Shown here piece after piece: positions 3,310-58,716 of a stretch of 64,000 nucleotides of DNA. The notes under the pieces were generated by a model, which had not been told where the DNA came from, did no database searches, and was given only the letters and a program-made list of their open reading frames with translations. Each line of letters begins with the position of its first letter. The first letter of the stretch is position 1. Source of the stretch: a virus. The stretch lies in the UHGV virus genome UHGV-0293664; one strand, 5' to 3'. The position numbers and the translations under genes are program-made.

Positions 3310-3338
3310 TTGACAAACTTTGCTTAACAGTGTAATAT
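3310..3338 (+). promoter_or_regulatory. sigma70-type promoter for the tRNA cluster (TTGACA-N17-TAATAT)
   Basis: TTGACA 3310-3315, 17-nt spacer, TAATAT 3333-3338. Confidence 0.6.
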
Positions 3339-3396
3339 TGTAAACATGGTCTCCCACCTTTTCTGGCGGCTCAGGTGTAAAAGAAAGCCACCCAGT

Positions 3397-3471
3397 GCCC
3401 TGTTAGCTTAGTGGATAAAGCAGCGGCCTTCTAAGCCGTTGACACTGGTTCGAGTCCAGTACGGGGTGCCA
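3397..3471 (+). tRNA. tRNA-Arg (anticodon TCT)
   Basis: Hand-folded cloverleaf: 7-bp acceptor stem (two G-U pairs), D-loop with GG, anticodon loop cttctaa, T-arm actgg-ttcgagt-ccagt, encoded CCA. Confidence 0.7.
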
Positions 3472-3601
3472 AGTTCTTTTTAATGTAGCTTACTTTAGCA
3501 GAGTAAATCTTCGGCAAGTGGCGGTAACCACTTTACCGATACCTCATAGTTAGTGGTGAGAACACTAGCTATTTTAAAAAGAATTTAAATATTAGTATTT
3601 A

Positions 3602-3689
3602 GGTGAGTTAATTCCGTAGGGGTAGCGGGGCAGACTGTAAATCTGTTATCATTGCGATTCGGGTGGTTCGACTCCATCACTCACCACCA
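3602..3689 (+). tRNA. tRNA-Tyr (anticodon GTA), long variable arm
   Basis: Acceptor ggtgagt/actcacc, anticodon loop ctgtaaa, long variable arm, T-loop ttcgact, encoded CCA. Confidence 0.7.
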
Positions 3690-3803
3690 AATTTATATTT
3701 TTAAATGCATAAATCATACAGATAATGGCATTGATATTTATCGTCGTTTATACTAGTCACTAACTGCTCGAAAATCAGTGTCATTATCAGTATTGTTTAT
3801 AAA

Positions 3804-3894
3804 AGAGGGTAGGGAGCAATGGTGCTCAAGCGGTCTTGAAAACCGTCCCGTTGAGGATGACTCGATGATGGTTCGATTCCATTATCCTCTGCCA
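3804..3894 (+). tRNA. tRNA-Ser (anticodon TGA), long variable arm
   Basis: Acceptor agagggt/atcctct, anticodon stem gcggt/accgt with loop cttgaaa, long variable arm, T-loop ttcgatt, encoded CCA. Confidence 0.7.
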
Positions 3895-3992
3895 TATTGT
3901 TGACCTTGTAATTAAGCGAAAGCCGGAAGCAGAACCGGATTATCAAATGTTACAGTCGTCATCGCCGACTAGCAACATGGTCAACATACTGA

Positions 3993-4089
3993 GCTAGGTA
4001 AGCCCTTTGGCAAGGGCGAGGATTTTTAATCCTGAAAATAGACGAGGTAGTCGTTGAATACATAGGTGGTTCGATTCCATCACCTAGCA
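3993..4089 (+). tRNA. aberrant 97-nt tRNA-like gene (possible anticodon TTT; isotype unresolved; may be a pseudogene)
   Basis: Perfect 7-bp acceptor stem gctaggt/acctagc, canonical D-arm gccc-tttggcaa-gggc and T-arm ggtgg-ttcgatt-ccatc, but about 30 extra nt between anticodon and T arms and no encoded CCA. Confidence 0.4.
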
Positions 4090-4096
4090 CCTTTTT

Positions 4097-4172
4097 GCTG
4101 ATGTAGCACAATTGGTAGTGCAATTGATTTGTAATCAATAGGTTGCAGGTTCGAGTCCTGCTATCAGCACCA
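4097..4172 (+). tRNA. tRNA-Thr (anticodon TGT)
   Basis: Acceptor gctgatg/tatcagc, anticodon stem attga/tcaat with loop tttgtaa, T-arm gcagg-ttcgagt-cctgc, encoded CCA. Confidence 0.75.
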
Positions 4173-4173
4173 T

Positions 4174-4248
4174 GGCCCTGTAGCTGGAAGGTTCAAGCAA
4201 GCGACTCATAATCGCCAGACGGTGGTTCAATTCCACCCAGGGCCACCA
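4174..4248 (+). tRNA. tRNA with CAT anticodon (Met, or Ile if lysidine-modified)
   Basis: Perfect acceptor ggccctg/cagggcc, anticodon loop ctcataa, T-arm ggtgg-ttcaatt-ccacc, encoded CCA; D-stem and first anticodon-stem pair are imperfect. Confidence 0.6.
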
Positions 4249-4259
4249 AATAATAAATA

Positions 4260-4336
4260 CTCCGCGTAGCTCAGCTTGGTAGAGCGCCTGATTTGGGATC
4301 AGGAGGTCGAGTGTTCGAATCACTCCGTGGAGACCA
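4260..4336 (+). tRNA. tRNA-Pro (anticodon TGG)
   Basis: Acceptor ctccgcg/cgtggag, D-arm gctc-agcttggtag-agcg, anticodon stem cctga/tcagg with loop tttggga (G37), T-arm gagtg-ttcgaat-cactc, encoded CCA. Confidence 0.75.
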
Positions 4337-4383: not shown

Positions 4384-4653
4384 ATGTATACACTTAAAAT
4401 TGTAGAGCGTGTAAATCCAACCCATACCGTAGATTTTCGTGACGATTTCAATCCTCTGGCTGTAAATCTTCGAGAGTCATATCATGAACTCAGCTGCGAT
4501 GCAGTGGTGGTCTTTTTTGAAGACAACTCTGAAGGGGCGGTAGCTTGTGTTGTTGATAGTGAGCAGAAGTTTTATATTTACAGAGATGTAGATGCATACT
4601 TGATGAATGAAAATGCAGTTACTGTTAGAATCATCCACCGAGTGCCTCGATAA
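4384..4653 (+). CDS. hypothetical small protein
   Basis: ATG at 4384 after RBS-like AAAGGAA; the longer track ORF 4276..4653 overlaps tRNA-Pro and was trimmed. Confidence 0.4.
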   Translation: MYTLKIVERVNPTHTVDFRDDFNPLAVNLRESYHELSCDAVVVFFEDNSEGAVACVVDSEQKFYIYRDVDAYLMNENAVTVRIIHRVPR

Positions 4654-9595: not shown

Positions 9596-10015
9596 ATGCC
9601 ACAGGAAGAAATGATTTCCTACGAAATCATCTACGAGCCTGACACTAAAGATGCTCACGGTGAGTGGATGAGTAAAGACACCATCAAAAAGGCTAAAGAT
9701 AACTGGGACGCAGCATACGCCGCAGGCCTAGTTTCTGAAAACCTTTTTCACTTGACCTCTACAGATGCTTTCACCATTGAAAAGACGTGGATTCAAGAAG
9801 AGTTTGATGTTGTAGTGATTGGCACTGAGCAGGTCATCAAGGCTGGCTCTTGGGTTGCTAAAGTTAAATACAATAATCCTGAATTATGGGAAGCTAAGAA
9901 GGCTGGCATTGTTGGTGGCCTAAGCATTCAGGCAACAGGTAATGTTGATGAAGAAACTGGTGAAATTACCAACGTAAACTTCGGGATCAGTGTTGTAGAA
10001 GAGGGCAATGAATAA
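9596..10015 (+). CDS. head morphogenesis protein (possible prohead protease)
   Basis: Between portal and scaffold-like gene; start trimmed to the ATG at 9596 after GGGGAA, because the track ORF 9440..10015 overlaps the portal 3' end. Confidence 0.3.
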   Translation: MPQEEMISYEIIYEPDTKDAHGEWMSKDTIKKAKDNWDAAYAAGLVSENLFHLTSTDAFTIEKTWIQEEFDVVVIGTEQVIKAGSWVAKVKYNNPELWEAKKAGIVGGLSIQATGNVDEETGEITNVNFGISVVEEGNE

Positions 10016-10992
10016 TGTCTGAAAAAACGATTACTATTAAAGAGAAGGGGATTGCCCTGTGCCATAAGGCGCAAGGCTATAGCGCTAACAACAGACCTGT
10101 ATCTCTTTTGATGAAGAGTGATCTTCAGCCTGAGCAGTTGACAGACGATATTGTTAAGGCACTTCGCCAAGTTACTGTGGAGCTTAGTTTTGAAGAATAC
10201 CTGCGTCGTTTCTTCGATATGTGGTATGACGATGCCAAGGCACTTGCACACATGCTTGGTTTTGAGATTGAAGAGGAAGCTTGGGCTAAAGAGCATCCTG
10301 ATTGGGAATGGGCGCAAGCTGACGCAGAGTCTTGCATTGCATGGCTGGAAGAGCGTTGTGATAACGTGACCATTCATAAAGCTGCAAAAGAAGGCAAGCA
10401 GCTTAGTGTGGTAGATCAGTACAGCCTGTTAAAAACACAACAGATTTTTGAACAAGTAACCGCTGATCTCTTCGATAAAGAAGGGAACCTGATCAAGGCG
10501 GTACAGGAACCTACTGAGGTGGATAAAACTACCGAGGTGGATGATGTTGCAAAATCCGCAAATACCGAGGAGAATCCGGTGGACGTAACCAAAACTAAAG
10601 AGTATCTGGATCTGCTGAAGCAAGTAGAAGAGCTGAAAGCAACCCAGAGTAAAGCTGAAGAAATCATCAAGGCCCAGGTTGAAGTTGAAAAAGCTAAAAT
10701 GCTGGCTAAAGCTCAAGCTTTAAGCTTTGTTGGTGAAGAAGATCATGCAACCCTTGTTGACTTCATGCTGGAAAAAGCTAACGAACCTATCGTAGCTATG
10801 CTGGAGAAAGCTCAAGCCAAAATTAAAGAGCTGGAAGCAGAGGTGCATAAAACCAAAGAAGAGTTTGCCACCACTGAACATGGTAATGATGGCGAACCTG
10901 TTGTGGATGATATTGCAAAATCCGCAGAAGAAATTCTTGCTGAAAACGTTGCAAAAGCGCTTGCTCGTGCACGTGCAGAATCTAACAAATAA
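10015..10992 (+). CDS. scaffolding protein
   Basis: 325 aa, highly acidic and Ala/Glu/Lys-rich with coiled-coil character, placed between portal/protease and capsid genes. Confidence 0.5.
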   Translation: MSEKTITIKEKGIALCHKAQGYSANNRPVSLLMKSDLQPEQLTDDIVKALRQVTVELSFEEYLRRFFDMWYDDAKALAHMLGFEIEEEAWAKEHPDWEWAQADAESCIAWLEERCDNVTIHKAAKEGKQLSVVDQYSLLKTQQIFEQVTADLFDKEGNLIKAVQEPTEVDKTTEVDDVAKSANTEENPVDVTKTKEYLDLLKQVEELKATQSKAEEIIKAQVEVEKAKMLAKAQALSFVGEEDHATLVDFMLEKANEPIVAMLEKAQAKIKELEAEVHKTKEEFATTEHGNDGEPVVDDIAKSAEEILAENVAKALARARAESNK

Positions 10993-11012
10993 GACATTAA
11001 CGGGGGAAATAA

Positions 11013-11402
11013 ATGATTACCGCTCAATATTCTGATATCGTGCTCGGCAAAGTTGATTCTAGCGATGCTGGCTACAATTTTAAAGAGATGGAAATTACAC
11101 TGACAGAGCACCATCATGCTGGCACTGTTGTAACAAAAATTGGCACTATCGCTAACGATGATGGCTCAGATGTTTATGGTGTTCTTGTAGACCGAGCTCT
11201 GGTAAAAGATGCAGGAAAAGTTCATCTGGCTGAGCCTCTGCAAACAGGTCAGAAATATAAACTGGTTGTTGCAGTTCACGGTGTTACCTTTGCAAAAGAT
11301 AAGCTGCTAGGGTCTAACGGTGAAGCAGCTAAGCAGGCTGTTCTTGAAAAGCTGGAAGCTCTGGGTAACAAAGTTCACGTCCAGACTCTTGGTGAAGAGT
11401 AA
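11013..11402 (+). CDS. head decoration-like protein
   Basis: 129-aa ORF immediately upstream of the capsid candidate with strong RBS and highly biased codon usage; call by position only. Confidence 0.35.
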   Translation: MITAQYSDIVLGKVDSSDAGYNFKEMEITLTEHHHAGTVVTKIGTIANDDGSDVYGVLVDRALVKDAGKVHLAEPLQTGQKYKLVVAVHGVTFAKDKLLGSNGEAAKQAVLEKLEALGNKVHVQTLGEE

Positions 11403-11449
11403 GCCCTAAATAGTTCGGGAAATATTTAAGTTTTACTTTGGAGAAATAA

Positions 11450-12460
11450 ATGATTACTCGTAAAGATGAATTTGGCATTGTTGATTTAGGTGCTACTCTG
11501 GACCTTGTTCCGCGCCAATTCCGACTGATTACCGGTATGGATCTGTTCGAAACCCGTCTCGGCACCTCAACAATTGCTCAGATCGAGCGTGTTGATGAAG
11601 TCGTAACCGACATTCCGGCACGCCGTCGTGGTGGTGAGCGTAACTACGTTGGTAGTGAACGTGCTCAGGTTAAAAACCTGAACATCCCGTTCTTCCCTCT
11701 GGACAAAGGCATCACCGCAGCAGATGTTCAGAACTTCCGTCGTTACTTCACTCCTGATGCTCCGAAAACTGTTCAGGACGTAGTAACCCGCGTTGTTCGC
11801 CGTATCCGTGTTTCTCATGAAGCACTGCGTGAGAAAGCGCTGTTCCAGGCTATTCTGGGTAAATCCTATGCACCTGGTGACACAACCTGTCAGTATGACT
11901 ACTACACTCTGTGGGGTGTGACTCAGAAGTCTGTTGAGATTGACCCTGCAAAAGCAGATCAGGATCCGATGGAGGTTCTGGAAGAAGCTCGTCTGCACAT
12001 CGCGCTGCAAGCTGGCGATAACGCAGCTGGTTATCGTATTGTAGCCCTGTGCTCACCAGAGTTCTTCAGTGCTATTACCCATCACCCACTGGTAGAACTG
12101 GCATACACCTATTACGGCTCTGCTCAGGAACCTCTGCGTCGCCGTCTGGGTGCAGGTGGTCAAGACAGCGTATACCGTGTGTTTGAGCATAAAGGTATCA
12201 CCTTTATCGAAGATATCTCTGGCAATATTCCTAAGAAAGAAGCTCGCATTCTGCCGATGGGTATTGATCAGATGTTCCAGCTGCACTTTGCTCCGGCAGA
12301 TGATGTTAACGAAGCAAACACTCCAGCACAGGAACTGTACATGTGGTATAAACACTCTGCATACCTGCGTGAAGAGAAGATTGAATCTGAAACTTCCATG
12401 CTGGCAGTTAACACCCGTCCAGAGCTGGTTGTTAAAGCAACTCTGAAAGCTGGTGGCTAA
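11450..12460 (+). CDS. major capsid protein (candidate)
   Basis: 336 aa, strongly biased high-expression codon usage, follows scaffold and decoration-like genes, followed by a strong terminator. Confidence 0.5.
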   Translation: MITRKDEFGIVDLGATLDLVPRQFRLITGMDLFETRLGTSTIAQIERVDEVVTDIPARRRGGERNYVGSERAQVKNLNIPFFPLDKGITAADVQNFRRYFTPDAPKTVQDVVTRVVRRIRVSHEALREKALFQAILGKSYAPGDTTCQYDYYTLWGVTQKSVEIDPAKADQDPMEVLEEARLHIALQAGDNAAGYRIVALCSPEFFSAITHHPLVELAYTYYGSAQEPLRRRLGAGGQDSVYRVFEHKGITFIEDISGNIPKKEARILPMGIDQMFQLHFAPADDVNEANTPAQELYMWYKHSAYLREEKIESETSMLAVNTRPELVVKATLKAGG

Positions 12461-12484
12461 TCACTGATGTGATTCATCCCATAT

Positions 12485-12513
12485 GGGGAGGGGGTTCTCC
12501 CCTCCCCTTTTTA
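12485..12513 (+). terminator. strong intrinsic terminator after the capsid gene
   Basis: GGGGAGGGGG-ttct-CCCCTCCCC then TTTTTATTT. Confidence 0.75.
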
Positions 12514-12540
12514 TTTATTAGGGTTTACCAGGAGTGTCCC

Positions 12541-13389
12541 GTGAAGAGAGCTGTATATCCAGTCGAGTATGATCCTCTATTAAGAGTTTTCAACAATCAG
12601 TTAAGTTTTTATCAATTTTTAGCACAATATAACCCAGAAATCAATGTTGGTTTATCAGCCCTGCTGCCACCAACAGAATTCGTTATCGGCAGTGTTCACT
12701 ATCCGTGCAGAACGATTGTAGACTTCTTCGAGAAGATTGCAAAACATACAGGACTGCCAATTGATCCTGGTATTTCAACTATCCGTATGGGTGTTATTCT
12801 TCTGTTCTTCACAGAGAACCTTGATGAAAGCACTTTAACACTGCAAAGCGGGGATGTCAATATCACACTCACCCCGTCAGTGTTTAAAGAGGTAGATGCT
12901 GCTTTCCAAGTTTCCGTGGCAGAGGGCCATCTATGGGACCCTGTAGGGATGCCTAAAAAAGTGACCATAAACGATGAGCAATGCAATATTGTTTATGAAG
13001 AAGATACCCAAACCTTCACCATTGAGTGGCCTAAGAAACGTTCTCAGGTTGTAAATCTTGGACTGGTCTCTACGATAGCTCCACCGCCTGAACCAGAGCC
13101 GGAGCCGCCTGTAGGTCCTACTGAACCTGGTGGTGGTGGTGAAGAATCTCAAGGTCCGACTGTACCTGAGGAAGGCACTGAGCAGGATCCTGAACAGGCA
13201 CAAGAATCAAGATCTTCTCGCAGTGATGTTGATGCCATACTACAGCAGGCCGCAGCTCTTAACAACGAAGATGACAAAAGTGGTTCAAAAGATGCACTTC
13301 AAGCCTTCGCTAAAGAGTACGGTGTTACCTTAAGTAAGGCAAAAACTTTCCAAAATATGATGAAAGATTTTGAGGCTGCACTGGCATAA
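12541..13389 (+). CDS. hypothetical head/neck protein with Pro/Glu-rich linker
   Basis: GTG start after RBS AGGAG (the track start 12469 lies in the terminator); contains PPEPEPEPPVGPTEPGGGGEE linker. Confidence 0.4.
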   Translation: MKRAVYPVEYDPLLRVFNNQLSFYQFLAQYNPEINVGLSALLPPTEFVIGSVHYPCRTIVDFFEKIAKHTGLPIDPGISTIRMGVILLFFTENLDESTLTLQSGDVNITLTPSVFKEVDAAFQVSVAEGHLWDPVGMPKKVTINDEQCNIVYEEDTQTFTIEWPKKRSQVVNLGLVSTIAPPPEPEPEPPVGPTEPGGGGEESQGPTVPEEGTEQDPEQAQESRSSRSDVDAILQQAAALNNEDDKSGSKDALQAFAKEYGVTLSKAKTFQNMMKDFEAALA

Positions 13390-13398
13390 TTTTGTTAA

Positions 13399-13433
13399 GG
13401 CCCCTTCCAAATCAGGAATGGGGCTTTATTTTT
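13399..13433 (+). terminator. intrinsic terminator
   Basis: ggccccttcc-aaatca-ggaatggggc followed by tttattttt. Confidence 0.6.
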
Positions 13434-13448
13434 ACGAGGTATTTTCAA

Positions 13449-14069
13449 ATGGCATGGTATGAAGATGAAGAGATTATCCCGTCCCCGCCTAACCATGATG
13501 GTGTAGTTGATACCCCAGAAGAACCACCAAAAGAAGATCCTGTACCTCCGGAACCTGATCCAGACCAACCTCTTATTAATATTATGAGGTTGTTGCTTGG
13601 CAATGTTGATGAGGAAACCCTCCCTGACGAGGTAATTAAAACATTCCTTGACATGGAGAAGCTGAAACTAAATTATCCGGCAGACCCTGATAAGCTACCT
13701 CTGCTTAAGTACAATGTGCTTGTGCAGCTTGTGCGGTGGCTGATGATGCAGGAAGTGTCCAGCGGTAATGCAAGTATAACTTCTCGTCTGGAAAAAATAG
13801 GTGATGAGACCATAGAGATTCGTGGTGGATCTGCCTACGCCCAGTGGAAAGATTTCCTTGATTGGCTGCTGGCACACCCAGACTATGTAGACTCTGAGCT
13901 GGATGCTTACAGCAGAATGATTATCATTGGTGGTGTTCGTGTAGACGAAGGAATTCGGGTTAAATTTAATGAAAACAGCAACGGCCCGTTCGATGTCCAA
14001 GGGATTACACCTATCAGTGGTCTAAATAATCAACCTCCTCGCCACCCAAGACGCAAACGCAGTTTTTAA
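13449..14069 (+). CDS. hypothetical neck/head-tail joining protein
   Basis: ATG at 13449 (MAWYEDEE...); the track start 13392 lies inside the terminator hairpin. Confidence 0.35.
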   Translation: MAWYEDEEIIPSPPNHDGVVDTPEEPPKEDPVPPEPDPDQPLINIMRLLLGNVDEETLPDEVIKTFLDMEKLKLNYPADPDKLPLLKYNVLVQLVRWLMMQEVSSGNASITSRLEKIGDETIEIRGGSAYAQWKDFLDWLLAHPDYVDSELDAYSRMIIIGGVRVDEGIRVKFNENSNGPFDVQGITPISGLNNQPPRHPRRKRSF

Positions 14070-14075
14070 AAATTG

Positions 14076-14104
14076 TTGCTTTTGATGTATCTTTGTGGTA
14101 AAAT
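14076..14104 (+). promoter_or_regulatory. sigma70-type promoter with extended -10 (TTGCTT-N17-TGgTAAAAT)
   Basis: TTGCTT 14076-14081; TG 14096-14097; TAAAAT 14099-14104. Confidence 0.5.
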
Positions 14105-14122
14105 ACATTAGTGAGGAATATA

Positions 14123-14587
14123 ATGCTAAAGGTTAAATGTCAAACAAGGTTCAACTTAAAGCGTTTAGATCGCTTTTATAAAGACCTTGTGAAACTTGAA
14201 AGCAAAACAATAACCTACGGCTTTTATGACGAACCTCACCCGTCAGGCTTAAATATGGCAACATTGGCAGCTATTCACAACTTCGGTTGGAACGGGCTGC
14301 CTGTTCGCAATTTCATGGAGACGGCCTTTGCATTTCACAGCACGCAACTGCAAACCTTGACAGAAAAATTGTTGAGGGCTATGGCTAGAGGATCAAGTGC
14401 AGAGGCCGTTCTTAGGCAGATGGGGGACACAGGGGCTAAAGCTATCCAGTTTGTTATTGAGGCTGGTCAGTTTAGTAACCCTACTGTTAGTGAGCAGTGG
14501 GCACAAGAGAAGGGCTTCAACGAGGCTATGCGGCATTACGATGTGCTGCTGGAATCTGCAACCTTTAAAATTGGACAGCAAAAATAA
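14123..14587 (+). CDS. hypothetical head-tail connector protein
   Basis: ATG at 14123 after RBS GTGAGGA; position between capsid and tail genes. Confidence 0.35.
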   Translation: MLKVKCQTRFNLKRLDRFYKDLVKLESKTITYGFYDEPHPSGLNMATLAAIHNFGWNGLPVRNFMETAFAFHSTQLQTLTEKLLRAMARGSSAEAVLRQMGDTGAKAIQFVIEAGQFSNPTVSEQWAQEKGFNEAMRHYDVLLESATFKIGQQK

Positions 14588-14596
14588 GGGGGTTGA

Positions 14597-15022
14597 GTGG
14601 CAGCAGGTTATAAGCTGATAGGAAAGAACAGGCTAATACCCCGTAAAACATTTAAAGGTCGCCACAGAGTGTATAACAAAACAGTTGGTGGTCCTTTTGC
14701 TAACGAGGGGTTAGAACTTGAGTATGAAGAGTTTGATGTCTTAGAGTGTGTTGTGCAGCCGTTGACAGGAAGGGCAGCTAAAGATTACTCCTCTCAAATA
14801 AATCCCGAAGGTGACAGACAGTACGAGGCTTTTACAGTTTACTCCTCAACCAAGTTGTATAGTCCAGATGAAGGAACATATGCAATGGCTGATCAAATTC
14901 AGCTGCCTGACATCCGTGGTGACTTGAAATGGTTTACCGTTTTAAAATGCGATGCATATGTCACGTCTGGTGGTGGAAGATATAGATTTTTTGTGGTAGA
15001 AGAGCCTGAAGGAGAAGACTGA
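14597..15022 (+). CDS. hypothetical head-tail connector protein
   Basis: GTG start after RBS AAGGGGG; 141 aa. Confidence 0.35.
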   Translation: MAAGYKLIGKNRLIPRKTFKGRHRVYNKTVGGPFANEGLELEYEEFDVLECVVQPLTGRAAKDYSSQINPEGDRQYEAFTVYSSTKLYSPDEGTYAMADQIQLPDIRGDLKWFTVLKCDAYVTSGGGRYRFFVVEEPEGED

Positions 15023-15573
15023 TGGAAGCTTTCGAAAAAGTTTTTTCTGATCTTGAAACAACCATTGCTAAGCTTGTCAAGGTTGCCACAGGAAGAACTG
15101 TAGTTCTGGCAGAAAGCTTCACCATACCGAAGCCGGAAGGTGAGTTTGTACTTTTACAAACCTTGGCGATCAATCCCACCACTTGGGAAGATAACGAGTT
15201 CCAAGATGCGGAAGGTAATGCTTACGTAACACACAGTTACACTGTTACCTATCTGTTAACAGCTTATCGTGGCAGGGCATATGCTGCACTTAGCAGAGTA
15301 TTGCAAGCAATAAACCTTCCAATGTTTTATGACAAGTATTTCCCTCTGGGATCGTGCTTTGCCTACTCTAACAATTCAACAATCTCACCTCAAAGAGTGC
15401 CGTTGAATAAGCAGACGTATGAAAATAGGGCCACGGTAATGCTGACATTTAACGTAAGGTTTGTTGAGACAGACATTGGGGCTTTTGAGGATCTTCAGGG
15501 AATTAAGGCTGAAATAACCATACACTTCCCTTCACCCAATTCTGATAAATCGGTTACAGACAGTGGTCAGTAA
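15022..15573 (+). CDS. hypothetical tail completion/neck protein
   Basis: 183-aa ORF with start overlapping the upstream stop. Confidence 0.35.
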   Translation: MEAFEKVFSDLETTIAKLVKVATGRTVVLAESFTIPKPEGEFVLLQTLAINPTTWEDNEFQDAEGNAYVTHSYTVTYLLTAYRGRAYAALSRVLQAINLPMFYDKYFPLGSCFAYSNNSTISPQRVPLNKQTYENRATVMLTFNVRFVETDIGAFEDLQGIKAEITIHFPSPNSDKSVTDSGQ

Positions 15574-15645
15574 TCGTTATAATTGTGTAGTGTAATGATT
15601 ACACTGCGTGTTTGATATCCGTGCACAGATATTAAGAGGAAACAA

Positions 15646-17022
15646 ATGCCATATTTAGATAAAGTGGTAGATGTTACAGTTAACCTCGGAACCCAGCCTA
15701 TTGACACTGTAGGTTTCGAAACCCCGCTGTTCATCGCTATCCACAACAACTTTACTGAGCGAGCTCGCGTGTATGCTGAGCTGGACCAGATGGTGGAAGA
15801 CGGTTTCGCACAAGGCTCTGCAGCGTATGAGTTTGCAGCAAAAGCTTTCGGCGGTGTATTCCCTCCACAATACGTTATAATCGGCAGACAGGCTAAAGAA
15901 AAAACCACTGTAGATTTTAAAGGTATTGCTGCCGCAGCCGATACCGATGTCGTAATGACCATTGCAAAAGGCAGCTACAATACTTCTTTGATAGTGCCTA
16001 TCTCTGGTGGAACAGCTGCAACTCAGATTGCAGAATCAATGAAGACTAAAATCGAAGCAGATGATAACTTGGACGATATCACTGTAGCGGCTGAAGACGG
16101 TGTTATCACCATCACTGGTGACTGTACTGTAGGTTATCATACTGGTAACTATACAATCAAAAATATCGCCAATGCTGAAAAACCTTCTACAGTAGTTGAT
16201 AAGATCAATGCTGAGCGTGACAATTGGTACTTCCTGTGCCATGAAGACCACACCGACATTGAAGCATGTGCTAAGTGGGCTCAGGCCAACTACAAGCTGC
16301 ATGTTTACTCTACTGCAGAAGATGTGACTGGTAAAGATAATAACATCGCCACCAAACTGATGGCTGCACAATATGACAGTGTTGGCATGTACGATCCTCG
16401 TGCTGATAAAGATTTTCCAGAGGGTGGTATCGTAGGCGCTATGGCATCCAACGATCCGTCTTACGGTGACAGCTTGCACTTAAAACAGATGCCGGGTGTG
16501 ATTGCACCATCTCTGACTTTAACTCAGCGTATGGCGATTTGGGAAAACCACGTTAACTTCTACAGAATGATTAACGGTGTTGGCGCTTTCTGGGAAGGTA
16601 AGTGTGCTTCAGGTCAGTATGCAGACGCTATTCGTTTTGCACACTGGATCAAGTTCAGATCTGAAGAATCCATGTTTGGGTACATGCATCGTCGCTCTAA
16701 TATGGGTTTAAGCATGAAGATGTCCGATGATGATCTCCCGGTTATCAAGTCTGTCCTGATGAACAACCCAATCAACACTGGCATTAAGAATGGTGCGATC
16801 CTGACAGGTTTCGACGAAGACAATAATGTATTCTACGACCCGATCATTACAGTTCCTAAACGTGCAGAAATCCCAACCAATCAGTTGGCTGCTCGTGTTC
16901 TGGAAGGTGTGAAAGTAGAGCTGGTGTATAACAACGCCCTGCACTTCGTTCGTATCCGGATCAACGTCCTTCTGGACAAAGTTGGTTCTAAATCCACCAA
17001 TGCTGTTGCAATGACTGAATAA
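15646..17022 (+). CDS. tail sheath-like protein (candidate)
   Basis: 458-aa ORF with high-expression codon bias, immediately upstream of a 157-aa tube-like gene, the chaperone pair and tape measure; order sheath-tube-chaperone-TMP is typical of contractile tails; not motif-verified. Confidence 0.4.
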   Translation: MPYLDKVVDVTVNLGTQPIDTVGFETPLFIAIHNNFTERARVYAELDQMVEDGFAQGSAAYEFAAKAFGGVFPPQYVIIGRQAKEKTTVDFKGIAAAADTDVVMTIAKGSYNTSLIVPISGGTAATQIAESMKTKIEADDNLDDITVAAEDGVITITGDCTVGYHTGNYTIKNIANAEKPSTVVDKINAERDNWYFLCHEDHTDIEACAKWAQANYKLHVYSTAEDVTGKDNNIATKLMAAQYDSVGMYDPRADKDFPEGGIVGAMASNDPSYGDSLHLKQMPGVIAPSLTLTQRMAIWENHVNFYRMINGVGAFWEGKCASGQYADAIRFAHWIKFRSEESMFGYMHRRSNMGLSMKMSDDDLPVIKSVLMNNPINTGIKNGAILTGFDEDNNVFYDPIITVPKRAEIPTNQLAARVLEGVKVELVYNNALHFVRIRINVLLDKVGSKSTNAVAMTE

Positions 17023-17032
17023 GGAAGCCTAG

Positions 17033-17506
17033 ATGGAAACTCAAATTTTAACTCCTTATGCGTATGACCCTAAAAAGGTCAAACTGTATCTGATGCAGCA
17101 GCGTGTCACTGGCTTCGCTGCTGACACCAAGATTGTTGTTTCAAGAAACGAAGACAACATTTATCCCCACGTCGGTGTGGATGGCGAAATGTCTGCAGCT
17201 CTGTCCCGTAACCAATCTGGTGTTATGACTGTATCTTTGCAGAACACTTCTGTATGGAACGCTTACCTTTCTGACTGGCAGAAACAGGCATCGATTACTG
17301 GCCTGGTATTCTTCCCGGTTCTGCTGGAAGGTAGCCAGGGCCCTGGTATTTCCACAATCGGTTGGATCCAGAAACAGCCTGACCTGACTTACGGAACCGA
17401 AGTAGGTCAACTGGACTGGGATATCGGTATTCTGGATGCATGGCTCAACCGTGATAACATCACTGGTGCTCTTACTGGCCTCGCAGGTCTTGCAGGTATT
17501 ATCTAA
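17033..17506 (+). CDS. tail tube / major tail protein (candidate)
   Basis: 157-aa ORF directly before the chaperone genes, followed by a terminator. Confidence 0.4.
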   Translation: METQILTPYAYDPKKVKLYLMQQRVTGFAADTKIVVSRNEDNIYPHVGVDGEMSAALSRNQSGVMTVSLQNTSVWNAYLSDWQKQASITGLVFFPVLLEGSQGPGISTIGWIQKQPDLTYGTEVGQLDWDIGILDAWLNRDNITGALTGLAGLAGII

Positions 17507-44700: not shown

Positions 44701-44967
44701 ATGAAACTAACTCAGTTTTTATGGGGACTGGTTGCGGCATCTGATGACCCTACGAAAGTGTCCCAATCTAAGCTATGGTCGAACATAGGTATGGCGGTGA
44801 TGACTGGGGTGTTTATTCATATGGGGTATAATGATACGCTTCCTGAATGGTATGCGTGGATATACGCGCCTTCAGTAGCTTGCCCCCAGCTTATTAGCAA
44901 ATTCATCTCGCTCCGGTGGGGTTGCCAGCACCCTGACCACGTTAAAAACGAAGAGCAAAAAGCTTAA
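44701..44967 (+). CDS. small hydrophobic protein downstream of fibre paralog 2
   Basis: 88-aa ORF with two hydrophobic segments. Confidence 0.3.
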   Translation: MKLTQFLWGLVAASDDPTKVSQSKLWSNIGMAVMTGVFIHMGYNDTLPEWYAWIYAPSVACPQLISKFISLRWGCQHPDHVKNEEQKA

Positions 44968-57234: not shown

Positions 57235-58716
57235 TTATTTAGCGTACTCGATTAATTCCACAGTTTTCCCAAAGCTCGGGATATAATTTTTATTATACCC
57301 CTCGGTGAGAACCCATAAAGTATCGTACTTTTTCCACTTGTTGTCAACAGCCTTTTGTTCAAAGTTATGCTCAAAGTATAGGTCGGTCAGGACGATGACA
57401 TCTTTTGCATTCGGTATATTGGCATCCAGATACTCGAACACGCAAGCAGCTGTTGTGCCCCATGTTGAGTGGACCTCATAGTTGATCATCTCATCTATGT
57501 TACCGCGAGTGTATACTTTAACCTCTCCAACCTCAGTTGACCAACAGAACATTGTAACCTTAAACTCTTTATACAGATTGCACAATCCGGTGATTTCATT
57601 GAACATTTTCTTTAAAGTTCTTTGAGAGATCGAGCCAGAAACGTCTAAAGCCACCACAATATCTATGGTGTTTTCCGGATTACGACCAGGAACAATAACG
57701 TGCTGGTTCTTGTTTATAGCCCCAACTTTTCGCATTGTGCTGGTCAAAGACCCAGATCGGCGACCAGGTTTTCTGTAGGTCAGTTCAGCCTTTCGTTTAG
57801 ACAACATGCGTTGCTTAATGATATCTATATAGTTGATTACAGGCTTGCCTCTGTTCTTGACAAACTCACGCACCGCCTCAGGGCAACGACCTCCGGAAGC
57901 TTGCATTGCTGCCTCCAGCATGTCACCAGAATCCTGCATGGCCTGATCTTTATCAGATTGGCTGATTACAGGTTGTGGCCGATCATACCCCATAGCCTTC
58001 CCAAGATCATCGCTGGTGCCACCGTTCCCGCTCATGTGATCATCGGTTTGTCGCTTATCTCCTTGGGAGTTATCACCTTTACCGCTCTTACTTTTACCGT
58101 TATTTTGATCTCTTTGCCTATCAAGAACTGCATAGACGTTCTCAGCAATCCATCCATGAAACTTCATGTCGCAGTAGCAGCTGGCTAAGAAACCAAAAGG
58201 CTTACCTTTTACGAACGTAGTGCTTTTCCCCTTCGGGAAGAAAACACAAGGGGGCTTGCTAAAGTCAACCACAAGACCTGTGTTGATAACGTGATCACAA
58301 GCAATATTGAACAGTTCCGGCTCAAAGCTTTTGCCACGGACCAGGTGATCACAGATAATATGCCCCACCTCATGTGACAGAAGGAAAGCCACCTCTTTCA
58401 CAGATTTGGGGGAATAGAAAACTTCAGCCATCTCAAACTGCTCTCCAGTTAGAGAGGCCTTGAGAATAGCCTTGCGTTCATCAGCCAACCCCATAATGAA
58501 CTCAGGACTGTAATAGATGCGTTTATGGTCGGTTGCCATGGTGGAGCACCATGTGTGGTTTTCTACGAACTGTAACCCTGACAGCAGTGTGCCATAAAAC
58601 GGCAGCTTTTCAAGGAGATACATACGTGCAGCCTGTAACATTCTCAGGGCATCATCTTTCTGTGAGGCAATGATTTCTGAACTTCTGCTATCCATTAAAA
58701 CTCCAGAAGGGGCCAT
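57235..58716 (-). CDS. VWA-domain protein with N-terminal HExxH metallopeptidase-like domain
   Basis: HEVGH zinc-binding motif at N-terminus; MIDAS motif VVALDVSGSIS in the C-terminal half. Confidence 0.6.
   Translation of the reverse strand: MAPSGVLMDSRSSEIIASQKDDALRMLQAARMYLLEKLPFYGTLLSGLQFVENHTWCSTMATDHKRIYYSPEFIMGLADERKAILKASLTGEQFEMAEVFYSPKSVKEVAFLLSHEVGHIICDHLVRGKSFEPELFNIACDHVINTGLVVDFSKPPCVFFPKGKSTTFVKGKPFGFLASCYCDMKFHGWIAENVYAVLDRQRDQNNGKSKSGKGDNSQGDKRQTDDHMSGNGGTSDDLGKAMGYDRPQPVISQSDKDQAMQDSGDMLEAAMQASGGRCPEAVREFVKNRGKPVINYIDIIKQRMLSKRKAELTYRKPGRRSGSLTSTMRKVGAINKNQHVIVPGRNPENTIDIVVALDVSGSISQRTLKKMFNEITGLCNLYKEFKVTMFCWSTEVGEVKVYTRGNIDEMINYEVHSTWGTTAACVFEYLDANIPNAKDVIVLTDLYFEHNFEQKAVDNKWKKYDTLWVLTEGYNKNYIPSFGKTVELIEYAK

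Follow-up and report, generated by a model that had tools for sequence, protein, structure and literature searches.

Are the gaps between the genes of a phage transfer RNA (tRNA) array spacers or genes in their own right? The question arises for a seven-gene tRNA cluster at positions 3310-4336 of a 64,000-nucleotide (nt) stretch (the window) of the virus genome UHGV-0293664. The window is a Vequintavirus (rV5-like) genome, and its cluster region is 97-99% identical to those of rV5-like coliphages, the closest being JEP1 and ECML-10. Six canonical tRNAs, one non-canonical tRNA-like gene, and three structured spacers (A, B, and C) make up the cluster. An earlier note on this DNA had proposed that the spacers at 3472-3601 (A) and 3895-3992 (C) might hold further small RNAs; our analyses bear this out, as both fold more stably than shuffled sequences (z = -3.4 and -2.6, respectively) and comparative data agree. 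We consider it probable that the locus is a mosaic tRNA operon of an rV5-like phage that carries processed spacer RNAs alongside codon-supplying tRNAs, and in which the RNA of spacer A (element A) is antisense to the abortive-infection gene ibfA/abi of plasmid ColIb-P9. Within the literature searched, the recognition of the spacers as conserved RNA genes, one of them antisense to the end of the ColIb abortive-infection gene, is new.

Element A is a 116-nt RNA of four helices (the outer stem P1, then P2, P3, and P4) at 3471-3586 on the plus strand, as are all features of the cluster described here. Folding, covariation, and a covariance model all delineate it; it fills the gap behind tRNA-Arg and stops 15 nt short of tRNA-Tyr. 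In an alignment of 18 distinct phage homologues, 99.7% of cells were paired and 7 pairs had changed on both sides, with P1 pair 6-132 seen as CG, AU, GC, and UG. The covariation score was reached by none of 500 shuffles, and slid controls gave no double changes at all. The covariance model, R1, scored element A at 132.5 bits. Homologues with 70-99% identity were found in 178 phage records from at least five phage groups: some Vequintavirus, other Vequintavirinae (A5-4, PBES 02), Phapecoctavirus, Justusliebigvirus (phi92, VEcB), and a subset of T5-like phages. In every locus examined, element A lay on the tRNA strand, usually spanning from the 3' end of one tRNA to the 5' end of the next and otherwise directly behind a promoter. 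What emerges is a non-coding, structured gene flanked by and co-oriented with tRNA genes, and we are highly confident that it is a selected, structured RNA gene. No Rfam family matched spacers A, B, or C, the phage lambda copy of element C (described below), or the ColIb region.

Exact-pattern scans of IMG/VR gave few loci; it was a metagenome scan for the P2-P3 core that revealed a second context, one without tRNAs. This context comprises conjugative IncF/IncI plasmids of Escherichia coli and Salmonella (443 PLSDB records), in which the core is antisense to the last codons of a 114-amino-acid (aa) "abortive infection protein" (Abi) convergent with a DUF4238 gene. The 55-nt core of the window (P2 plus P3, 3489-3543) is 100% identical to positions 13400-13454 of ColIb-P9 (NC_002122), and its exact allele is carried by 341 plasmids. 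ColIb-P9 ibfA, which inhibits T5 and BF23, has been placed at 13,401-13,745 of NC_002122 (PMC8004404). The open reading frame (ORF) at those coordinates lies on the complementary strand, and its C-terminal end, GIGKVVTATCRRFTLLK, is the exact reverse-complement translation of the phage core. Positions 3489-3543 are thus the reverse complement of the ibfA/abi stop codon and last 17 codons, and an RNA co-transcribed with the tRNAs would be complementary to that gene end. In other words, 55 contiguous nt are complementary to the messenger RNA (mRNA) of a small hydrophobic toxin, and the predicted duplex between core and abi mRNA has an energy of -131.6 kcal/mol, compared with -46.8 +/- 5.1 kcal/mol for shuffles.

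The Abi protein, whose family includes Swiss-Prot ABI_ECOLX, is basic (net charge +9) and hydrophobic over residues ~44-86. A small, basic, hydrophobic product fits the membrane depolarization described for ColIb abortive infection of T5, for which the T5 proteins A2/A3 are given as the trigger (PMC10644984). Neither NCBIfam nor PADLOC recognized the Abi protein; the neighboring DUF4238 protein was a weak PADLOC match. In ColIb-P9 and IncF colicin plasmids, ibfA/abi is convergent with the DUF4238 gene ~175 nt away and has colicin immunity genes as neighbors; earlier genetic work had described a pair of genes, ibfA and ibfB.

Phage and plasmid copies differ in what they retain. By tblastn, the full 114-aa ORF was present in all plasmid loci (67-100% identity) and in no phage context, phage loci keeping just the last 17-27 codons. 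Individual alleles correspond closely across the two contexts. Phage alleles matched their best plasmid partner at 50-60 of 60 positions (at least 55 in 15 of 21 phage sequences), compared with a median of 45-53 of 60 to other alleles, and variants of the hypervariable P3 loop were common to both. In some hybrid phage copies, the plasmid-type sequence reaches further, at either the 5' or the 3' side, which points to repeated exchange. In the plasmid gene, residues coupled through P3 pair 59-73 were M/I, V/A, or V/T in 87 of 88 clusters, such that the base pair was kept, a pattern to which shared ancestry may contribute. The host genera of element A phages and abi plasmids overlap. Judged on these comparisons, the best explanation is that P1 and P4 form a putative phage-specific scaffold around P2 and P3, which would represent an antisense copy of the ibfA/abi 3' end.

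On this basis, element A is a candidate counter-defense factor of the phage, an antisense anti-Abi RNA, a reading that we advance tentatively and with somewhat less than even confidence. In keeping with it, T5, which is aborted by ColIb, had no covariance model match across its whole tRNA region, and neither T5 nor BF23 was among the element A megablast hits. A more specific version, in which element A acts in trans to silence IbfA/Abi and phage and plasmid alleles track each other in an arms race, is possible and is put forward with similar reserve. Every step of the mechanism beyond complementarity is inferred. If the flanking tRNAs mature in the standard way, RNase P and 3' trimming would separate them from the polycistronic transcript and set the spacers free as individual RNAs, each closed by a long terminal stem; element A would be protected by its 13- to 16-bp P1 stem. 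The P2 and P3 loops of the excised RNA could then meet mirror-image hairpins at the end of the abi mRNA, from which pairing might extend to a duplex of at least 55 bp across the abi stop codon. Such a duplex would lead to cleavage or to blocked expression of the small membrane toxin Abi, and a phage in whose host the toxin is not made would escape ColIb-type abortive infection.

Parallels exist for parts of this scheme. RatA/TxpA and SR4/BsrG of Bacillus subtilis are type I toxin-antitoxin systems whose antitoxin RNAs, encoded in cis, overlap the 3' end of the toxin mRNA. As with element A and abi, the toxin is a small, hydrophobic membrane protein, the RNA is complementary to the toxin mRNA at its 3' end, and pairing could begin at structured loops. 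These systems differ in that element A would act in trans from a virus, and no cis promoter was found by scanning the plasmid: a conserved TTGACA-17-TAGCKT lies upstream on the plasmid plus strand, where the promoter scan passed 0 sites. Pseudo-ToxI of phage PhiTE (PMC3594212) is likewise described as a phage non-coding RNA derived from an abortive-infection locus, and it gives escape; as described there, however, it mimics the protein-binding antitoxin RNA ToxI in the sense orientation, whereas element A is antisense to a toxin mRNA. The ibfA/abi gene itself (NC_002122 13,401-13,745) is a further known system for comparison, its sequence being the complementary target of element A. No earlier report of the abi antisense link, nor of any phage RNA countermeasure to ColIb Abi, was found in the literature searched, coverage of which was incomplete, such that this is absence of evidence only.

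Several observations weigh against an anti-Abi role. The argument for this function is drawn entirely from sequence, and antisense RNAs act more often at the 5' end of an mRNA than at its 3' end. The phages against which ColIb Abi is documented are T5 and BF23, and rV5-like phages are not among them. Most Vequintavirus genomes, rV5 included, are without element A, which is therefore dispensable. The sharing of alleles could reflect recombination without selection, and with no scan-passing promoter on the plasmid plus strand, the idea of a resident antitoxin RNA of a type I toxin-antitoxin system is unsupported. Furthermore, what is reported to trigger ColIb Abi is a pre-early protein of T5 and not the loss of an RNA (PMC10644984).

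The stable RNAs of other tRNA arrays bear on the same question. Those of T5 (RNAI, RNAIII, RNAIV, RNA2H, and others) and of T4/RB3 (rnaC, rnaD) resemble element A in being non-coding RNAs of ~100-170 nt beside tRNAs and on the same strand, with a long terminal closing stem and internal hairpins, yet they share no sequence or model similarity with it, R1 finding no match at E <= 1 in either T5 20-70 kb or the RB3 cluster. We considered whether T5 stable RNAs are also antisense to host or plasmid genes and rejected the idea: RNAI, RNAIII, RNA2H, RNAIV, and the gap before tRNA-Tyr were without BLAST match in 5,426 E. coli genomes. The T5 RNAs, despite their similar architecture, thus match nothing in E. 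coli genomes, which counts against the anti-Abi reading and means that the antisense idea is not generalized beyond element A, the RNA that carries a defense-gene fragment. The T5 record annotates eight "stable RNA" genes in the tRNA region. HildyBeyeler-type phages carry element A at a place where T5 has a 96-nt gap, between tRNA-Tyr and promoter P14a, that likewise folds as a closed stem.

Such RNAs make it conceivable that element A is a stable, processed passenger of tRNA arrays, perhaps a spacer for processing or stability, or else an RNA that binds protein, comparable to the stable RNAs of T5 and T4, with a function unrelated to abi and a likeness to the plasmids that stems from past recombination alone. 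T5 has several genes annotated as "stable RNA with unknown functions" (103-172 nt) with closed-stem architecture between its tRNAs, RB3 and T4 have rnaC and rnaD, element C of the same operon is conserved across phages yet antisense to no gene, and the plasmid shows no promoter evidence for an RNA partner. We nonetheless regard this as unlikely, as the shared stretch is exactly the coding end of a defense gene, phage copies never retain the ORF, and element A is always antisense relative to tRNA transcription. In addition, identity at 55 of 55 nt together with several alleles shared pairwise argues for repeated exchange or tracking rather than one old accident. Still less credit is due to the proposal of a neutral scar left by recombination, in which element A would be a piece of an IncI/IncF plasmid acquired during infection and now hitchhiking with the neighboring tRNA-Tyr module. 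The operon is clearly mosaic, and the lack of the element in rV5 and most of its relatives has no obvious consequence; however, compensatory changes, as at pair 6-132, are seen in P1 and P4, the helices found only in phages and enclosing the captured core, and the element persists across at least five phage lineages in 178 records at the identities given above. A neutral scar is thus very unlikely. The antisense anti-Abi RNA remains our preferred, if tentative, reading of element A.

The match between element A and ibfA/abi links a naturally occurring phage RNA with one of the longest-known cases of abortive infection, that of ColIb against T5 and BF23, which was first described in 1968 and whose products and mechanism a 2023 paper still calls undetermined. 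If element A were a countermeasure, it would offer a direct experimental handle on the ColIb system and an example of a virus silencing a defense gene by antisense RNA. Arrays of tRNA genes would then be carriers of RNA-based counter-defense cargo besides tRNAs, a reason to screen the many unexplained structured RNAs that they contain. For phage therapy, it would help to explain differences in host range among near-identical rV5-like or T5-like phages on strains with IncI or IncF plasmids.

Element C (3898-3986), identified by folding and comparison, is a second conserved structured phage RNA, as judged from its sequence. It has a conserved core of ~65 nt (AATTAAGCG...CCGGAAGCAGAACCGG...GTCGTCATCGCCGAC...AGC) within an outer closing stem. 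Lambda, lambdoid prophages, P1-like plasmids, and siphovirus ST1UNAM have copies of the core at 83-90% identity. In lambda (J02459), the copy at 44866-44952 lies between tR'/orf-64 and gene S without an annotated feature; lambdoid prophage copies were found in 426 of 5,426 E. coli genomes; and those of P1-like plasmids lie directly 3' of a tRNA-Ser(UGA)-like gene. The groups have unrelated flanking sequences, yet a closing stem of 9-15 bp was present in 5 of 5, and an internal hairpin showed one U-A to G-C exchange. No gene lay antisense to or beneath the element C matches, whose prophage, P1-like, and phage contexts were without annotated feature. Immediately 3' of the copy in a P1-like plasmid, part of the small-RNA family STnc100 is matched at 39.6 bits, below the gathering score of 47.

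Spacer B (3690-3803) holds a long imperfect hairpin (~3708-3800) with a 15-bp central stem (fold z = -4.68). It was found in 114 phage records, all of them Vequintavirus and with at least 94.8% identity, and no match was found outside that genus, E. coli genomes included. A variant on a single metagenome contig has two paired positions changed with both pairs kept. Spacer B might be a processing site. Phages nomo and nimi annotate it as "repeat_region," and a weak promoter-like site lies within it at 3725-3754.

The tRNA genes that surround these elements make a cluster that is by itself ordinary and already published. The rV5 genome paper (Kropinski et al. 2013, PMC3606486) lists six tRNAs (Arg-AGA, Tyr, Thr-ACA, Met, and Pro-CCA, plus Ser by ARAGORN) and already makes the codon-supply argument, such that both the six-tRNA cluster and its rationale are known from rV5. 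It calls the tRNA with the CAU anticodon Met and mentions neither the seventh, tRNA-like gene nor a spacer RNA. The value of reexamining the cluster thus lies in three corrections to its annotation: the "tRNA-Met" is an AUA-reading tRNA-Ile2, the gene labeled "tRNA-Lys/OTHER/Pseudo" is a conserved tRNA-like RNA without a stable anticodon, and the "spacers" are genes.

Compared with the rV5-type operon, the window has the same six tRNAs in the same order and at the same genomic position, with 97-99% identity outside spacer A. The difference is that the JEP1/ECML-10-type lineage of the window has a 130-nt insertion (element A) and a replaced tRNA-Tyr; in rV5-type genomes, the gap between Arg and Tyr is just 5 nt and the Tyr allele is different. 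Positions 3468-3693 (spacer A plus tRNA-Tyr) are 99% identical to Phapecoctavirus arrays, such as that of phage 3A1_SA_NWU, and the best explanation is that this lineage gained element A together with tRNA-Tyr from an array of that type. The mosaic extends further: Thr-Ile2-Pro is ~87% identical to T4-like arrays, and tRNA-Ser plus spacer C resemble a module of P1-like plasmids. A relative, phage 241Ecol014PP (OR062943.1), has an HNH endonuclease gene inside its tRNA cluster, which recalls the homing endonucleases of the T4 and T5 tRNA regions.

The count of seven genes and all six anticodons given in the earlier note (TCT, GTA, TGA, TGT, CAT, and TGG) were correct, the seventh gene being non-canonical, and the prediction tools accepted the proposed cloverleaves rather than rejecting most of them. 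The seven genes are the union of ARAGORN and Rfam calls, all on the plus strand. Across the whole window, ARAGORN called 6 plus-strand genes, all within 3397-4336: Arg(tct) at 3397-3471, Ser(tga) at 3804-3894, an unassignable 99-nt gene at 3993-4091, Thr(tgt) at 4097-4172, Met(cat) at 4174-4248, and Pro(tgg) at 4260-4336. Six genes scored above the gathering score of Rfam RF00005 (29 bits): Arg, Tyr, Thr, the CAT gene, Pro, and the odd gene (here 3993-4089). Tyr, at 3602-3686, was missed by ARAGORN and caught by RF00005 (39 bits). Ser was absent from the RF00005 list above gathering; its nearest model was tRNA-Sec (39.4 bits, below the tRNA-Sec cut-off).

At the head of the operon, just upstream of morphogenesis genes, lies a sigma-70-type promoter-like site, TTGACA-17-TAATAT (3310-3338), which ECML-10 also carries as an annotated sigma-70 promoter. 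A single consensus promoter had been proposed here; the site is present, but with 10 of 12 matches and a -10 hexamer matching at 4 of 6 positions it is near-consensus rather than consensus. No terminator-like site was found 3' of tRNA-Pro, and an 89-aa ORF begins downstream at 4384, so the transcript probably runs on downstream.

The tRNA-like gene (3993-4091; "???" in ARAGORN and 35.5 bits in Rfam) has intact acceptor, D, and T arms and a variable region of ~30 nt. Its anticodon hairpin reads AGGA(U)-UUUUUAA/UUUUA-(A)UCCU, and its 3' end encodes CC alone. Across Vequintavirus, Avunavirus, and Seunavirus-type relatives, representing three genera of Vequintavirinae, its stems (acceptor, D, T, and variable arm) covary, with compensatory changes in every stem, and the linkers GAAAAUAG and UGAAUACAU are near-invariant, the second being AGAAUACAU in one relative. 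Its anticodon loop, in contrast, is UUUUUAA or UUUUA here, UUUAUAA in Av-05, and a 6-nt CCUCAA or CAUCCA in two Seunavirus-type relatives; a 7-nt loop with U33 and a conserved anticodon is thus not what this gene has. Nor is CCA consistently encoded among the homologues. Deposited genomes label the gene tRNA-OTHER, Pseudo, Lys, or TERM, or omit it altogether. A fixed role as a Lys decoder, suppressor, or frameshift tRNA was rejected because loop length and sequence vary among relatives. The pattern of conservation identifies the gene as a selected tRNA-like RNA that is not a fixed decoder; a role as decoy or substrate is speculation.

Among the canonical genes, tRNA-Arg(UCU) (3397-3471; Rfam, 67.8 bits) reads AGA, and AGG by wobble, and has CCA encoded. 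The class II tRNA-Tyr(GUA) (3602-3689) has a long variable arm and encoded CCA, its limits coming from the Rfam match and from an alignment that included Tyr genes of the T4 type, of T5, and of the rV5 type; the Phapecoctavirus copy has the identical sequence. The class II tRNA-Ser(UGA) (3804-3894) reads UCA, has CCA encoded, and is ~86% identical to tRNA-Ser of T5-like phages; its homologue in a P1-like plasmid is labeled tRNA-OTHER. tRNA-Thr(UGU) (4097-4172; Rfam, 76.2 bits) reads ACA, and tRNA-Pro(UGG) (4260-4336; Rfam, 66.4 bits) reads CCA. As had been noted, the set decodes mostly A/U-ending codons, with 5 of the 6 canonical tRNAs reading A-ending ones.

The earlier note had left the CAT gene (4174-4248; Rfam, 60 bits) as Met or Ile, and comparison with ileX and metT decides for Ile. 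Known determinants of tRNA-Ile2, from work on TilS, are the CAU anticodon, an ileX-type acceptor stem with C4-G69 and C5-G68, and the anticodon stem, a combination distinct from elongator tRNA-Met; T4 tRNA-Ile and ileX read AUA once lysidine-modified. The window gene is 1 nt off the RB3/T4-type CAU gene. Its acceptor G1G2C3C4C5 and its anticodon stem-loop of 15 nt, GCGACUCAUAAUCGC, are also those of E. coli ileX, whereas in E. coli metT the two regions read GGCUACG and CAUCACUCAUAAUGAUG. By these sequence features, the gene is assigned as a T4-type, lysidine-type tRNA-Ile2 that would read AUA, not Met.

What, then, are the tRNAs for? Codon usage was compared between 52 non-overlapping window ORFs (17,654 codons) and 40 E. 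coli K-12 genes as within-family ratios; that the host sample is just 40 K-12 genes and the phage sample just ORFs with an ATG start and 100 aa or more counts against the codon-supply part of our interpretation. Relative to E. coli, the phage (GC content, 44%) uses AGA 19x, AGG 16x, ACA 4.2x, CCT 3.8x, ATA 3.7x, TCA 1.7x, CCA 1.5x, and TAC 1.0x as often. AGA, AGG, ACA, and ATA are four of its top five over-represented codons. The proposal of codon supplementation is thus well supported for Arg, Thr, and Ile2 and modestly for Pro and Ser, and it fails for Tyr, as codon supply does not explain a tRNA for codons used at a ratio of 1.0. That supplementation serves late genes was too broad a statement. 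With gene identities taken from PHROG assignments, large tail-fiber genes use AGA/AGG/ATA at 9-24 per thousand codons, whereas these codons are nearly absent from the genes for the major head protein (11450-12460), tail sheath (15646-17022), and tube-like structural protein (17033-17506). Phage tRNAs would therefore mainly serve less abundant large proteins. By region, the contrast is between 10015-17506 (head, sheath, and tube), where rare codons are avoided, and 18457-52398 (tail-fiber and other large structural genes), where they are heavily used.

An alternative is that the main purpose of the tRNA set is counter-defense, not codon supply: it would make good host tRNAs lost to anticodon nucleases or other tRNases. 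According to published work, tRNA-Tyr is a target of cleavage by Retron-Eco7 and Septu, and a phage-encoded tRNA-Tyr counters this (PMC10644984); phage tRNAs have also been proposed to offset tRNA-cleaving nucleases. For tRNA-Tyr, with no codon-usage rationale, replacement of a host tRNA-Tyr cut by defense nucleases is by analogy the more likely role and a plausible one. The Lys-like UUUUUAA loop of the tRNA-like gene, variable between relatives, and major head, sheath, and tube genes with no need of rare-codon tRNAs could be read in the same way for the set as a whole. Since the phage's own Arg, Thr, and Ile2 tRNAs decode exactly four of the five most over-represented codons, and since large tail-fiber genes use rare codons heavily, we think it rather unlikely that counter-defense is the main purpose of the set; the two roles are, in any case, not exclusive.

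Elsewhere in the window, a 493-aa ORF on the minus strand (57235-58716), opposite to the structural module, matches a PHROG family annotated as HNH endonuclease. Several database labels among the matches look wrong: rV5-like and phi92-like coliphages have near-identical counterparts filed under "Campylobacter phage," Phapecoctavirus-type sequence appears in "Pseudomonas phage PsgM04F" and "Acinetobacter phage ABPW7," and a 137-kb "plasmid" (CP057073.1) has 97.9% identity to this phage region over element C.

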